Source: Eubacteriales bacterium (GTDB lineage Bacteria > Bacillota > Clostridia > Oscillospirales > UBA644). From it: DNA of 64,000 nucleotides. The first letter of the stretch is position 1; each line of letters starts with the position of its first letter. Made by a program: the position numbers and the translations under genes. The stretch is taken from assembly GCA_045542115.1 (NCBI GenBank), contig JAZQKK010000014.1:253646-317645 (forward strand), written 5' to 3'. Positions 23,751 to 54,038 of this stretch are shown in pieces. Under the pieces are notes generated by a model. The model was not told where the DNA came from, searched no databases, and saw only the letters and a program-made list of their open reading frames with translations.

Positions 23751-24806
23751 TCATTTTCGTTCTTTGGATTCTTTTTGCAACCGTTCAAAGAGACGTGGCA
23801 TAAACTCCCGGAAGGCGGAAGGCAAAGCGTAGACCGACCGCAAGTCTTCCGAATCTGCCCACTGCCAATTTTCCGGTAGGTCCGGAGAAGAAAGAACCAA
23901 AACTTTGGATTCCATCTCCCACTCAATATGGGAAAATACGTGTTTTGCCCAACCAAACCCGCCTTCTTCCCTGCCGCAGAATCCTTCGGGAAGAACCGGT
24001 TCATCGACAAGCCCATTGGGAAATTCCCACATTCCGGATAAAAGTCCCTTCTTGGGGCGACGGCGCAAGGCGACCCGGCCATCGTACAGAAGGAAAAACA
24101 CCGTGCGGCGTTCCACCCGGCGGGGCTTTGCTTTGCTTTTTACCGGAAGGACCGCTGTCAAAGATTTTGCTTTTGCAACACAATGACAAGAAACAGGACA
24201 CTGTTCACATAGCGGAGTCCCATTGGGCAGACACACCGTGGCTCCCAACTCCATCAAGGCCTGGGTATATTCCGACGTTTTCCCTTCCGGCATTGCTCCG
24301 CGCAACAACTCCCGACAAGTCTTACGGGTCTCGTCTGCCATAATATCGGAATCGTTTCCCGTAATCCGGGACCAGACCCGAAGAACGTTTCCGTCTACGG
24401 CGGGCTCCGGTTTTCCGAAGGCAATGGAACAAATGGCACCGGCGGTGTAATCTCCGATTCCGGGCAGAGAGCGAACCGAAGCGTAGTCCGACGGGAAAAC
24501 GCCCCCGTAATCTTCCATAATCTTTATTGCGGCTTTTTTCAGATTCCGGGCCCGGGAATAATACCCCAAGCCCTCCCAGAGTTTCATCAACTTTTCATCG
24601 TCACAACGGGCAAGAGCGTCTACGGTGGGAAGCTCTTTCAAAAACCGTTCGTAATACGGAATCACCGCCGAGACCCGGGTCTGTTGGAGCATAATCTCCG
24701 AAATCCACACGTGATAGGGCGTAGGGTCACTTCGCCAGGGCATCGTCCGGGCGTGACGGGAAAACCATTCCAGCAACGGGACGGTCAGGTAATTCCAACG
24801 GTTCAT
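23751..24806 (-). CDS. mutY: A/G-specific adenine glycosylase
   Basis: VWISEIMLQQTRV, WEGLGYYSRARNL, LPGIGDYTAGA, VDGNVLRV, CLPNGTPLCEQCP. Start after GGAGG. Confidence 0.95.
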   Translation of the reverse strand: MNRWNYLTVPLLEWFSRHARTMPWRSDPTPYHVWISEIMLQQTRVSAVIPYYERFLKELPTVDALARCDDEKLMKLWEGLGYYSRARNLKKAAIKIMEDYGGVFPSDYASVRSLPGIGDYTAGAICSIAFGKPEPAVDGNVLRVWSRITGNDSDIMADETRKTCRELLRGAMPEGKTSEYTQALMELGATVCLPNGTPLCEQCPVSCHCVAKAKSLTAVLPVKSKAKPRRVERRTVFFLLYDGRVALRRRPKKGLLSGMWEFPNGLVDEPVLPEGFCGREEGGFGWAKHVFSHIEWEMESKVLVLSSPDLPENWQWADSEDLRSVYALPSAFREFMPRLFERLQKESKERK

Positions 24807-25128: not shown

Positions 25129-27747
25129 ATGAAACACTATTTTGAAACAGCACAAGCGGTCTTAAAAGAAGTGAAATCCACGGAAAACGGATTGACTTCC
25201 CAGCAAGCCGCGGAACTGGGAACCGGCAAAAACAAGCTGGCTGAGGGGAAAAAGATATCCGTTCTGATGCGGTTCTTTAACCAGCTGACCGACCCGATGA
25301 TTATCATTCTTTTGGTGGCAGCGGTGGTCTCCGGGGTAACGGCGGCCATCTCCCACGAATCCTTTGCCGACGTGTTCATCATTCTGTTCGTCGTAGTGCT
25401 GAACGCCGTTTTGGGCGTAGTACAGGAAAGCAAGGCGGAAAAAGCTCTGGAAGCCTTGAAAGAAATGACGGCAGCCACCTCGAAAGTTCTGCGAGACGGG
25501 GAAATGGTCCACGTAAAGAGCGAAGATTTGGTGGTAGGCGACGTTATCCTGTTAGAAGCGGGGGACGCCGTTCCCGCCGATGTACGGATTCTGGAATCCG
25601 CCTCGATGAAGGTGGAAGAAGCGGCTTTGACCGGGGAATCCAATGCCATTACCAAAACCTCCGACGTGTTGCCCCAAAGCGGAAAAGACTGTCCCTTGGG
25701 CGACCGGAAGAATATGGCCTATATGGGAAGCACCGTGGTATACGGACGCGGAAGAGCGGTAGTCACCGCCATTGGGATGGAGACCGAAATGGGCAAAATT
25801 GCCTCTGCCCTGTCCCAGACCGAAGATTCCCAGACTCCGTTGCAAAAGAAGCTGAGTCAGCTGAGTAAGATTCTTACCTGGCTTGTGCTTGGTATTTGCG
25901 TATTCATCTTTGCCTTTACCATTCTTAAAGACGGAGATTTCGGATTCAATCATCTGTTGGAAACCTTTATGGTCGCCGTTTCTTTGGCGGTGGCCGCCAT
26001 CCCCGAAGGATTGGCAACGGTGGTTACCATCGTGTTGTCCATCGGCGTGACCAAAATGTCCAAGAGAAACGCCGTTATCCGCAAGTTGACAGCGGTAGAG
26101 ACTCTGGGATGTACCCAAGTTATCTGCTCGGATAAGACCGGGACTCTGACCCAGAACAAAATGACCGTCGTGGACCATTACGGGGACAACGAAACCCTTT
26201 TGGCGGAAGGTATGGCTCTTTGCTCCGACGCAGAATGGACCGAACGCGGTACGGAAGGAGAACCCACCGAATGTGCTTTGGTCAACTATGCTGCCAGCCT
26301 GAATCTGAAAAAGCCCAGTTTAAAGGCCTCCTCTCCCCGTATCGGAGAAGCACCCTTTGACTCTTCCCGGAAAATGATGTCCACCGTTCATAAGACCAGC
26401 GGCGGAATCGTTCAATACACCAAAGGCGCTCCCGATATCGTGCTTTCCCTCTGCACTTCCGTTCTAAAAAACGGACAGCGGGTCCCGATGACCGAAGCGT
26501 TGAAGCAAGAAATTTTAGCGGCACAAAAGGAAATGTCCGACCGTGCGCTGCGGGTCCTTGCTTTGGCAATGAAACCCCACGGGGATGCACCCACTTCCTA
26601 TGAGCCGGAAGATTTGGAACACGACCTTGTTTTCGTGGGACTGTGCGGGATGATCGACCCGGTCCGTCCCGAAGTCAAGGCTGCAATTGAAAAGTGCCGT
26701 TCTGCCGGCATCCGTCCCGTAATGATTACCGGGGACCATATTGATACGGCAATTGCCATTGCAAAGGAACTGAACATTCTTTCCGATGCTTCTCAGGCCA
26801 TCACCGGGGCACAGTTGGACGAAATCCCCGAAGAAGAATTTGAAAGTGCTGTGGAACGGTATTCGGTCTACGCCCGGGTACAGCCGGAGCACAAGGTCCG
26901 TATCGTGAAGGCGTGGAAGGTAAAAGGCAAAGTTACCGCAATGACCGGCGACGGTGTCAACGACGCTCCTTCCATCAAGAGTGCGGATATCGGCGTTGGT
27001 ATGGGTATCACCGGAACTGACGTTACCAAGAACGTGGCGGATATGATCCTTGCCGACGACAACTTCTCCACCATCGTTACGGCGGTAGAAGAAGGGCGGA
27101 AGATTTACGACAACATCCGCAAGGCCATCCAATTCCTGTTGGCGTCCAATCTGAGTGAAGTTATCTCCATCTTTACCGCGACGATTCTCGGATTTACCAT
27201 TCTTCATCCGGTGCATATTCTCTGGATCAACCTGATTACCGATACCTTCCCGGCGTTGGCGTTGGGCGTGGAAAAGAGCGAACCGGATATTATGCAGAGA
27301 AAACCCCGCAGTTCCAAGGAAGGTATCTTCTCCGGCGGCGTTGGATTTGACGTGGCATATCAAGGCATCCTGGTCTCCATTTTGACCCTTGCATCGTATT
27401 TTATCGGTCACTTTATGGAAACCGGAAACTGGGAGATCACCACCTCGGAACACGGCGTTACAATGGCGTTTTTGACGATGTCGATGGCGGAAATTTTCCA
27501 CTCCTTTAACCTGCGGTCTCAGAGAAAATCCATCTTTGCCCTGAAATCCCATAACGTAATGCTGTTCGGTGCAATGCTGGCTTCCTTGGTTCTGACCACG
27601 GCGGTCATCTATATCCCCGCCCTTGCCACGGTCTTTGAATTTACTCACGTTTCTCTGACCGAATACTTTACCGCTATGGGGCTTGCCGTTCTGGTCATTC
27701 CCGTGGTGGAAATCGTTAAATTCTTCCAGCGGAAGTTTGGAAAATAA
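25129..27747 (+). CDS. P-type (P2A, Ca2+/Mn2+) cation-transporting ATPase
   Basis: TGES, PEGL, DKTGTLT phosphorylation site, KGAPD, TGD, TGDGVNDAP. Start at ATG 25129 after AAGAAAGG. Confidence 0.95.
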   Translation: MKHYFETAQAVLKEVKSTENGLTSQQAAELGTGKNKLAEGKKISVLMRFFNQLTDPMIIILLVAAVVSGVTAAISHESFADVFIILFVVVLNAVLGVVQESKAEKALEALKEMTAATSKVLRDGEMVHVKSEDLVVGDVILLEAGDAVPADVRILESASMKVEEAALTGESNAITKTSDVLPQSGKDCPLGDRKNMAYMGSTVVYGRGRAVVTAIGMETEMGKIASALSQTEDSQTPLQKKLSQLSKILTWLVLGICVFIFAFTILKDGDFGFNHLLETFMVAVSLAVAAIPEGLATVVTIVLSIGVTKMSKRNAVIRKLTAVETLGCTQVICSDKTGTLTQNKMTVVDHYGDNETLLAEGMALCSDAEWTERGTEGEPTECALVNYAASLNLKKPSLKASSPRIGEAPFDSSRKMMSTVHKTSGGIVQYTKGAPDIVLSLCTSVLKNGQRVPMTEALKQEILAAQKEMSDRALRVLALAMKPHGDAPTSYEPEDLEHDLVFVGLCGMIDPVRPEVKAAIEKCRSAGIRPVMITGDHIDTAIAIAKELNILSDASQAITGAQLDEIPEEEFESAVERYSVYARVQPEHKVRIVKAWKVKGKVTAMTGDGVNDAPSIKSADIGVGMGITGTDVTKNVADMILADDNFSTIVTAVEEGRKIYDNIRKAIQFLLASNLSEVISIFTATILGFTILHPVHILWINLITDTFPALALGVEKSEPDIMQRKPRSSKEGIFSGGVGFDVAYQGILVSILTLASYFIGHFMETGNWEITTSEHGVTMAFLTMSMAEIFHSFNLRSQRKSIFALKSHNVMLFGAMLASLVLTTAVIYIPALATVFEFTHVSLTEYFTAMGLAVLVIPVVEIVKFFQRKFGK

Positions 27748-53096: not shown

Positions 53097-53130
53097 AAAA
53101 AACGACCTGTCGAAACAGGTCATTTTTTGG
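53097..53130. repeat. Direct-repeat copy A of the tRNA-Cys terminator/CCA end
   Basis: AAAAAACGACCTGTCGAAACAGGTCATTTTTTGG, versus copy B at 53931-53966. Confidence 0.75.
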
Positions 53131-53188
53131 GGGGGGTTGTTTGAATTTAGCGGCACGAATATAATATGCCTGAAAACTGAGGATTTTC

Positions 53189-53572
53189 TTACATTTCTTT
53201 AAATTTTTTGTAAGTTATGCAGTTAACATAATTCTCATCATATTTTTTTGAACTTCGGAAAATGCCATTATCTAATCCCTCATCTCCGCCTGGCGTTCCC
53301 CTTACAACAAATAAAGTGTTCAAAACCTTTCCGTCAAATTTATAAATTGGAATTTTATCACCATAGCGCCTACCTGACAATCGCCAAAAACGAGGGACTT
53401 GTTCCCAACAAATCGTATTGTCGATAAAATGTATTACCGTATACTTGTTCGCAATTTTTATAGGAATAATAACCGTGTATTCTTTATCACCACAATTCAC
53501 AGAATAAACATTTACAAATTCTGTTTGTTTAACAAGTTGTTTTTTGGATTTGAAACAATCAAATAGTTTCAT
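53189..53572 (-). CDS. AT-rich orphan hypothetical protein (127 aa)
   Basis: Open frame with upstream AGAAGGA; AT-richer than flanking genes; no recognised motif. Confidence 0.6.
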   Translation of the reverse strand: MKLFDCFKSKKQLVKQTEFVNVYSVNCGDKEYTVIIPIKIANKYTVIHFIDNTICWEQVPRFWRLSGRRYGDKIPIYKFDGKVLNTLFVVRGTPGGDEGLDNGIFRSSKKYDENYVNCITYKKFKEM

Positions 53573-53594
53573 AATGTTACATCCTTCTACTATT

Positions 53595-53930
53595 CATCGT
53601 TTGTACGAAGCACAACTCTGTTTGCCGAGGGCAACCTCGTTTTGTGTCTGCAAGCGTAATGATGTTTTCGCTCTGCGAAAAATGATGCTTGCAACTGCGT
53701 TGCAAAACGATGTTTTTACACCACGAAAATGCAAACCGGTAAAAAAGACTTGTTTTTAGTGAAGTATCGGCTGTGCCGATGTGAAGTTATGGCTTGCGCC
53801 ATAGTGAAGTTCTGCGCTTCGCACAAAGTGAAGTTAAGTTTGCCAAAATACACTTGCGAAGCAAACTTCACTACGAAGTAACTTCACTGCCGAAAGCAAC
53901 TTCACTTGCCCATAAGGGCAAACTTAGTTG
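53595..53930. repeat. Structured box-and-hairpin repeat element (REP/BIME- or MITE-like, or ncRNA)
   Basis: A(T/C)GATG boxes separated by hairpins; four GTGAAGT boxes (53759, 53781, 53804, 53828) separated by hairpins; three inverted ACTTCAC boxes (53865, 53881, 53899); TAAGTTTGCC/GGCAAACTTA stem. Confidence 0.75.
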
Positions 53931-53966
53931 AAAAAACGACCTGGCGAAACAGGTCGTTTTTTTTGG
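53931..53966. repeat. Direct-repeat copy B: terminator of the tRNA cluster
   Basis: AAAAAACGACCTGGCGAAACAGGTCGTTTTTTTTGG, ending in the tRNA-Cys CCA. Confidence 0.8.
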
Positions 53967-54038
53967 AGGCACCATCCGGATTCGGACCGGAGCGTGGAAG
54001 TTTTGCAGACTTCTGCCTTACCACTTGGCTATGGTGCC
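53964..54038 (-). tRNA. tRNA-Cys (GCA)
   Basis: GGCACCATAGCCAAGTGGTAAGGC-GAAGT-CTGCAAA-ACTTC...TGGTGCCTCCA. T-loop reads TCCGAAT. Confidence 0.93.

Follow-up and report, generated by a model that had tools for sequence, protein, structure and literature searches.

The Gut-1 RNA motif, three hairpins joined by short linkers with the consensus [hairpin]-GUGAAAU-[hairpin]-GUGAAAU-[hairpin], has been listed in Rfam (RF01706) since 2010 without genomic context or function. It was described from 43 sequences and rated a likely RNA on covariation, and beyond this rating the original report gives only its occurrence in human-gut metagenomes (Weinberg 2010, PMC2864571). Our literature search returned no later functional work on Gut-1 and nothing tying it to a function or to Avd-like proteins. 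The latter belong to PF05635, a very large family whose stand-alone members have no known role. Here we describe a pair of box-and-hairpin arrays in a 64,000-nt stretch of DNA from a Eubacteriales bacterium (the window). Together with its relatives, this locus joins Gut-1 and PF05635: the Rfam motif is half of a larger element, sister types of that element escape Rfam, the element has a precise genomic address, and it comes with a testable partner protein.

The arrays lie in a gene-free, minus-strand spacer of 393 nt that separates the closing gene of a tRNA operon from an open reading frame (ORF) of 127 amino acids. The first array (type 1) is built on the heptamer GTGAAGT, which occurs on the plus strand at 53759, 53781, 53804 and 53828 and on the minus strand at 53865-71, 53881-87 and 53899-905. 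These sites, seven of the ten in the window, fall within 147 nt and are separated by seven differing mini-hairpins. The bacterium's own genome (G000; 1.93 Mb, 96% complete; below, G with a number denotes a genome and L with a number a locus) contains 155 GTGAAGT sites, with clusters of at least three only in the window and at C16:62435-62512. A word-free scan for chains of mini-hairpins with repeated linkers returned the same two loci plus chance triplets. The spacer also folds far better than shuffled sequences, with z = -6.2 for the minus and -5.8 for the plus strand. The stretch is a genuine, non-random element of a known but unexplained family.

An earlier reading, made from the letters of the DNA only (the sequence-only reading), had reported fixed boxes alternating with variable hairpins, and the boxes and hairpins that it listed are all in place; the genome-wide copy count that it proposed gives the two GTGAAGT clusters above. 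The hairpins ATCGGC-tgt-GCCGAT and TATGGC-ttgc-GCCATA are exact. Its third hairpin, TGCG-ctt-CGCA, is present, not as a full stem but as the core of a longer imperfect one, TCTGCG/CGCACAAA, whose orthologue in a sister species is the perfect TTTGTGC/GCACAAA. All three ACTTCAC boxes are flanked by TAAGTTTGCC and GGCAAACTTA, the two copies of an inverted repeat (X'' and X), and within this proximal arm a local hairpin, TTGCCC/GGGCAA, competes with the pairing of X and X''.

The proximal arm, read on the minus strand from 53930 to 53860, matches RF01706 positions 1-77 with 46.1 bits (E 4e-8), just below the gathering cut-off of 50 bits. The alignment retains all three stems and the conserved linkers, with GUGAAGU as the box instead of GUGAAAU. 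The distal arm, on the plus strand, scores 24.7 bits. The second copy in the same genome, at C16, reaches 52.2 bits and is above the cut-off; in relatives, the scores of orthologous and paralogous dyads lie between 50 and 92 bits, and there the distal arms also attain at least 50 bits.

To place the element among relatives, we collected arrays from 46 species genomes of the same bacterial family, which gave 61 arrays, 60 of them non-redundant. All 61 are dyads, in which an arm with sense boxes is followed by an arm with antisense boxes, the arms being convergent. Along the reading direction of the tRNA, the parts are, in turn, the CCA end; an A-tract, terminator and T-tract; CAACTAAgT; X, which can also form the local hairpin; three box-hairpin units; a central hairpin; X''; three to four antibox-hairpin units; and TAAAA. 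The closing repeat is 10-13 nt long and covaries: in 30 of 30 oriented copies, X and X'' pair exactly over a median of 11 nt, with 23 distinct sequences among them, compared with about 5 nt in shuffles. What Rfam catalogues as Gut-1 is therefore only one of the two arms of a dyad that a covarying repeat closes.

The dyads have a narrow genomic address. A terminator made of A-tract, palindrome and T-tract directly adjoins 52 of the 60 non-redundant dyads, and 30 of the 60 lie 57-92 nt downstream of a tRNA CCA end, as the sequence-only reading had thought worth checking. Fourteen tRNA types are represented, and behind tRNAs the order is tRNA, terminator, dyad in every case, with one polarity. 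In the window's own genome, nearly all of the roughly 33 tRNA-operon ends carry such a terminator and only two a dyad, which marks the terminator as native and the dyad as the addition. Family genomes contain between 0 and about 30 dyads each, and many copies are at contig ends. Of 399 genomes sampled across the class, 72 have Gut-1 matches, and these represent 41 of 217 genera. The subfamily to which the window dyad belongs has the same seven hairpin families wherever it is found, namely behind tRNA-Cys in the own genome and in the congener G035, and behind tRNA-Asn and tRNA-Thr in the congener G032. An exact 30-mer spanning box, hairpin and box, GTGAAGTTATGGCTTGCGCCATAGTGAAGT, is common to four other species-level ruminant-gut metagenome-assembled genomes (MAGs), labelled Clostridia, Eubacteriales or Oscillospiraceae, although the 600-bp housekeeping flank of the window locus matches no DNA elsewhere in the genus; by these signs the element spreads. 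Other arrays use other boxes: GTGATAT, ATGAAAT, TGATGATATAC, TATGTAAT, ATGAAGC, ATGAATT and GCTAAAT.

Several dyads in relatives have unusual surroundings. Units of a terminator fragment plus a dyad are repeated in tandem with a 230-nt period in L006 (1460-1780) and at G238:C10:49622-50156, and in L006 the repeat junction falls within the 5' arm of the terminator stem. In L133 (560-880) and L163 (2440-2690), the last 22-35 nt of the tRNA gene are duplicated beside dyad modules, in the order tRNA, short insert, tRNA 3' remnant, terminator, dyad, which resembles an integrase-type footprint or a decayed tandem tRNA. Solo dyads (L001, 1300-1400; the distal flanks of L003, L028, L039 and L045) are followed by a conserved tail of about 65 nt (...GAGTTCGAATTCATACGCAAAAACGGCAAAAATATCTTTTTTGTAGCCCATAGAC) and then by a second terminator. 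This tail contains a conserved TTCATA-N17-TATCTT with a variable intervening spacer, by eye a possible relic promoter. We considered that the tail might be a tRNA 3' remnant, since it contains GTTCGAAT, and rejected this: no T-stem is possible and the tail is identical behind different tRNAs, and we therefore read it as part of the element. At the orthologous tRNA-Cys locus of G035 (L084, 2250-2400), the type-1 dyad is followed by an array with TGATGATATAC boxes, a consensus promoter and an unrelated gene for a 169-aa membrane protein; from this different second array and gene, the slot behind tRNA-Cys is hypervariable within the genus.

The second array of the window (type 2) has ATGATG at 53659-64 and 53682-87 and ACGATG at 53707-12, together with an inverted CATCGT at 53595-600 that the sequence-only reading had left out. 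The block from 53595 to 53737 aligns with arrays in L020, L036 and L134, and its architecture is like that of type 1, with an opening hairpin, a closing repeat, CATCGT/CATCAT boxes, the invariant centre ACAAAACGAGG and then ACAGTG/ACGATG boxes. In this alignment the hairpins vary in sequence yet stay paired. An Rfam scan gave no match for 53595-53737. A covariance model built from four copies (R1) finds about 13 loci in 11 of the 46 family genomes; L076, which has AATGATG boxes, was excluded, as it does not align with type 2. The ATGATG block is an uncatalogued sister type of the Gut-1-type dyad. The copy in the window is damaged: its closing repeat is degenerate and its second arm ends after two hairpins.

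The hairpins between the boxes keep their pairing while their sequences change, as the sequence-only reading had proposed. In 213 distinct hairpins from 58 dyads there are 1059 Watson-Crick pairs and 27 others. Read on the antibox strand, 82 of the 213 loops are C-GNA-G triloops and 25 are GNRA loops (107 of 213), compared with 2 on the other strand. The motif d(C-GNA-G), for example d(GCGAAGC), is a classic ultra-stable DNA mini-hairpin. Only 16 of the 1086 pairs are of the G·T type (at most 1.5%), without strand asymmetry. This rarity does not tell RNA from DNA, control tRNA terminators being equally free of G-U pairs, and we do not use it as an argument. With a spacing that varies between 16 and 24 nt, the boxes would be out of helical phase in duplex DNA. 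This variable spacing, together with bare heptads of 7-nt period in basal clades, suggests that the heptamers may be read after the hairpins fold out.

The only recurrent family among ORFs that start beside dyads consists of 115-118-aa proteins of PF05635/TIGR02436, annotated as Avd-like, '23S rRNA IVS protein' or 'four helix bundle protein', whose genes begin 17-57 nt past the dyads. About 20 non-redundant Avd-like genes of the bacterial family have an array of hairpin-spaced heptamers upstream, and in basal Avd-like clades that place is taken by bare heptads, tandem or inverted. Type-2 arrays stand directly upstream of Avd genes in three cases in the family and in L134, and intact modules of array plus PF05635 gene are found at L134, G018:C28, G035:C3 and G016:C15. 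An Avd gene is present in 23 of 29 Gut-1-positive and 8 of 17 Gut-1-negative family genomes; G018, which has no Rfam Gut-1 match, has four Avd genes and about five type-2 arrays. Mapped onto a 35-member tree of Avd-like proteins, box type is nearly perfectly clade-specific: it requires 13 changes, where 200 shuffles averaged 22.0 and never came as low. With unlabelled rows removed, box type is at its minimum of 10 changes, and the TGAAAT, TGAAGC, ATGATG and TGTAAT box types each form a supported clade. This congruence supports, and does not prove, a pairing of array and protein. Linkage alone does not explain why the seven to eight boxes of an array are kept identical while its hairpins all differ. 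The literature that we searched contains no link between PF05635 proteins and heptamer arrays.

In the window's own genome, bare heptads also stand directly past two other tRNA terminators, TATTCAC TATTCAT TATTCAT after tRNA-Lys (G000:C10, about 26,940-27,030) and TATTCAA TATTCAT CATTCAT after tRNA-Val (G000:C19, about 23,950-23,990). Runs like these are found upstream of basal Avd-like genes in relatives (for example, L120).

A PF05635 profile search of the own genome found no gene, and the arrangement that we propose as the mark of such modules, an array of identical heptamers just ahead of a PF05635 gene from the corresponding clade, is not found in the window, which has arrays without PF05635. 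The gene that follows the window arrays encodes instead the 127-aa protein, which has 157 homologues with 62-83% identity in Clostridia MAGs. It matched nothing in Pfam, PHROGs, PADLOC, NCBIfam or a PDB sequence-profile search, and its AlphaFold2 model, which is beta-rich with a mean predicted local distance difference test score (pLDDT) of 82, has no fold match in a Foldseek search of the PDB (best E 0.29, TM 0.2). In three of nine contexts, the 127-aa gene lies 17 nt behind an Avd-like gene, and in four of nine, counting the window, it lies directly behind a dyad; it is a regular passenger of such modules. The intact order in L134 is tRNA, terminator, type-2 dyad, promoter, Avd gene, 127-aa gene, terminator. 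After its last ACGATG box, the window array continues with AATAGTAGAAGGATGTAACATT and the ATG of the 127-aa gene. This junction is identical at 17 of 22 positions to AATAGTGCAAGGAGGCAACTTT of L134/L036, which comprises the last codons of Avd, its TAG stop and the spacer, a likeness that we take as suggestive only. A promoter scan found no sigma-70-like site between the tRNA terminator and the start of the 127-aa ORF. A deletion would thus appear to have taken away the remainder of the type-2 second arm together with the module promoter and the Avd gene, fusing the array to the 127-aa gene. From the genome without PF05635, the junction likeness, the degenerate type-2 closing repeat and the intact order in L134, we conclude that the window copy is a fossil, orphaned and partly deleted. 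The layout of the locus is listed below.

Features of the array locus in the window (positions of the whole stretch; a dot marks features without an assigned strand)
Feature	Position	Strand	Basis or remark
tRNA operon promoter TTGACA-17-TATTAT	54525-54497	-	promoter scan
tRNA operon Val-Asp-Phe-Gly-Cys	54458-53964	-	ARAGORN and Rfam tRNA matches
tRNA-Cys, final gene of the operon	53964-54038	-	encoded CCA directly abuts the terminator A-tract
T hairpin, palindromic bidirectional intrinsic terminator (A-tract, CGACCTG..CAGGTCG, T-tract)	53931-53962	.	repeat with 13-nt arms, 100% complementary
Proximal arm of type-1 dyad (the Gut-1 unit): CAACUAAGU, UUGCCC/GGGCAA hairpin, three GUGAAGU with mini-hairpins	53860-53930	-	RF01706
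X, GGCAAACTTA	53917-53926	.	pairs with X''; sequence
X'', TAAGTTTGCC (plus strand), closing the proximal arm	53835-53844	.	inverted copy of X
Distal arm of type-1 dyad, Gut-1-like: four GTGAAGT and three mini-hairpins	53757-53839	+	RF01706, 24.7 bits
Type-2 dyad: opening hairpin; CAUCGU/CAUCAU boxes and their hairpins; ACAAAACGAGG at the centre; ACAGAG/ACGAUG boxes	53595-53737	-	aligned with relatives
Candidate junction and ribosome-binding site AATAGTAGAAGGATGTAACATT	53573-53594	-	likeness to Avd stop and spacer of L134/L036
127-aa ORF	53189-53572	-	ORF list; conserved gene
T', second terminator copy with 7 nt of the tRNA CCA-end flank	53097-53135	.	direct repeat, 39 nt, 87% identical

The two terminator copies form a direct repeat (53097-53135 and 53931-53969, spacing 834) that bounds an 834-bp islet containing the arrays and the 127-aa gene, and the CCA-end flanks in the two copies read TTGGGGG and TTGGAGG. 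By its appearance, this 39-nt repeat resembles an attachment site or a tandem duplication; a flanking terminator duplication of this kind is not seen at other such modules. The stem of T', CGACCTG/CAGGTCG (53104-53121), recurs with an inverted loop (TTTCGA vs TCGAAA) in the tRNA-Thr terminator of G032 (L089), and terminator stems in G037 differ by an arm swap, CAAGT/ACTTG vs CTTGT/ACAAG.

The explanation that we favour, tentatively and at somewhat less than even confidence, is that the arrays are cis-acting docking arrays for a cognate Avd-like protein, the window copy being the fossil head of a module behind the tRNA-Cys terminator. The region would be the non-coding head of a small accessory module lodged there, with two dyad arrays in tandem. 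The repeated heptamers would be the working units, docking a cognate four-helix-bundle protein of PF05635/TIGR02436, and the variable mini-hairpins would act as fold-out spacers that align the heptamers side by side in a single-stranded state, either unwound DNA or read-through RNA. In the own genome, the Avd-like gene would have been lost and the arrays left behind. The data above establish what the element is, how it is built, how many copies there are, its linkage to terminators, tRNAs and Avd genes, and the agreement of box type with Avd clade; the binding of protein to array, the single-stranded working form and the deletion are inferred. A broader proposal, which we hold to be doubtful, is that Gut-1-type arrays and stand-alone Avd-like proteins make up a two-part system of gut Clostridia in which the pentamer of each clade reads its own heptamer, presented either between fold-out mini-hairpins or in bare heptad runs; the pair would mark, and perhaps build, a platform behind tRNA operons and terminators for stacking small accessory genes like that of the 127-aa family, with solo arrays, the two of the own genome included, being non-autonomous or fossil.

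Several observations weigh against docking by an Avd-like protein. Arrays and Avd genes are adjacent, so the congruence of box type and protein tree could reflect plain co-inheritance rather than recognition. In the family, about 90% of the dyads stand without an Avd gene beside them, G037 has a single Avd gene for its roughly 30 dyads, and six of the 29 Gut-1-positive genomes, the window's own included, have no Avd gene at all. Promoter position varies: only 8 of 17 modules have a sigma-70-like promoter separating the array from the gene, and in L027 the gene begins 17 nt past the last box. The G-U test does not separate RNA from DNA, nearby tRNA terminators being equally G-U-poor, and the inferred deletion in the window rests on 22 nt that include a ribosome-binding site.

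It is unlikely, in our estimate, that the arrays act instead as a structured non-coding RNA, made as a tRNA-operon trailer through a leaky terminator or transcribed from the far side toward the bidirectional terminator, whose multi-branched fold would serve as a small RNA, an RNase III or exonuclease barrier, or a 5' leader controlling the downstream gene. The original rating of Gut-1 as a likely RNA on covariation (Weinberg 2010, PMC2864571) favours it, as do the folding of both strands far beyond shuffles, the switch-like competition between X/X'' and the local hairpin, and two window hairpins that pair solely on the minus strand, through G-U pairs. The window and L027 have no promoter between array and gene, so there the mRNA of the downstream gene must begin in or before the array. 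The two arms, however, are Gut-1-like on opposite strands, so that any single transcript has one of them in antisense and none has both in the sense orientation. The upstream side shows a strong terminator next to the array and no promoter, and the gene promoter lies downstream of the array in 8 of 17 modules. The loops are mostly the C-GNA-G triloops typical of stable DNA mini-hairpins, and the scarcity of G-U pairs without strand bias also counts against RNA, weakly, since terminators are alike in this. The sequence-only reading had offered an undescribed multi-branched RNA as one possibility: a multi-branched RNA has the low probability given above, and one arm is already described as Gut-1. 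The outcome that this reading had named as removing the novelty, a match to a described repeat family, has thus come about in part.

We regard as decidedly improbable a third account, in which the folded array or the adjacent terminator is the attachment site of a small gene-cassette platform, with modules of array, promoter, small genes and terminator stacked after tRNAs, in the manner of integron attC sites, whose recognition in single-stranded DNA depends on structure. It would accommodate the 87%-identical 39-nt copy of terminator and CCA flank that bounds the islet, the stacking of dyad types behind one tRNA (types 1 and 2 in the window and L020, types 1 and 3 in G035), the 230-nt tandem units of terminator piece and dyad in L006 and G238, the duplicated tRNA 3' ends beside modules in L133 and L163, the variable small genes that follow in one orientation in L035-L037, and the many copies at contig ends. 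Yet no recombinase is linked to the arrays at the loci examined, terminators around other modules are not duplicated, and on reading the sequence the attC R boxes (RYYYAAC/GTTRRRY) are absent. Nor was a pair of empty and filled sites recovered: the 600-bp housekeeping left flank of the window locus has no DNA match in 11 congeners, and an attempt at the second copy, anchored on KdgK, met three paralogues with 64-67% identity and ambiguous orthology. The sequence-only reading had offered, as its other possibility, a repetitive extragenic palindromic (REP) or bacterial interspersed mosaic element (BIME)-like repeat mobilized by an HUH transposase of the REP-associated tyrosine transposase (RAYT) or IS200 type, which would read box and hairpin in single-stranded DNA. 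The likeness holds insofar as this is a dispersed family after operon ends, sharing the same grammar of a short conserved word beside a hairpin and inverted pairs, with loops of the kind that stabilizes DNA hairpins; Y1_Tnp is found in 14 of 29 Gut-1-positive and 2 of 17 Gut-1-negative genomes. It breaks down in that a genome keeps the sequence of its REP stems conserved, while the seven hairpins of a dyad all differ, and no RAYT accompanies them. Y1_Tnp (PF01797) is absent from the five copy-richest genomes, G037 (60 matches), G026 (21), G033 (19), G035 (16) and G042 (14), no Y1 gene stands beside any examined array, and the only IS200-type Y1 gene of the own genome (G000:C14:35964-36320) is 218 kb off and near no array. 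A RAYT/HUH driver is disfavoured, and we consider a selfish repeat of this kind very unlikely.

The full dyad form, the sister type, the terminator and tRNA address and the candidate partner protein are absent from Rfam and from the literature that we searched. The biological weight of the window copies themselves is small, as they are orphaned and partly deleted. If docking by Avd-like proteins is true, the pairing of protein and array would be a new form of modular nucleic-acid recognition in which heptamer specificity shifts by clade, and may be a new route by which gut bacteria gather small accessory genes; the broader two-part system, if true, would assign a role to an orphan Rfam family as well as to the large '23S rRNA IVS protein' family.

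Among known systems, the REP/BIME elements of Enterobacteria, associated with RAYT, are likewise short extragenic hairpin repeats in inverted pairs, post-operon and multi-copy, with a word beside the hairpin. There, however, the stems are conserved and copies number in the hundreds, whereas here only the 7-nt word is constant, there are 2 to about 30 copies per genome, and no RAYT/Y1 association is seen. Integron attC sites also combine variable sequence with a kept fold and short conserved boxes, and lie between small promoter-less cassettes in one orientation; the arrays differ in having no R''/R' core boxes and many tiny hairpins rather than the single long bulged hairpin of attC. No recombinase or integrase was found among the ORFs flanking dyads; a genome-wide IntI search was not made. 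ToxI of type III toxin-antitoxin systems and CRISPR share with this locus a repeat array just upstream of a small gene, but ToxI repeats a 36-nt unit in tandem, unchanged and on one strand, and a CRISPR array has repeats of at least 23 nt and comes with cas genes. The sequence-only reading was right to set CRISPR aside, given 7-nt repeats, palindromic 'spacers' and inverted arms. The Avd proteins of diversity-generating retroelements and the IVS proteins are of the same family (PF05635) as the protein beside intact arrays; no reverse transcriptase or template/variable repeats lie near the arrays, in which they differ from those retroelements. IVS proteins sit within stable-RNA operons, with inverted repeats on both sides. 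The Gut-1 motif itself shares the three mini-hairpins with GUGAAAU-type heptamers between them and an origin in gut-associated uncultured Clostridia. The Rfam entry is a 77-nt small RNA from human-gut metagenomes only, without context or function. Here the boxes come in many variants (GTGAAGT, GTGATAT, ATGAAAT and others), the window copy scores below the cut-off, and the motif forms one of the two arms of a 170-nt dyad that goes with terminators and tRNA 3' ends, has a covarying closing repeat and is linked to Avd-like genes.

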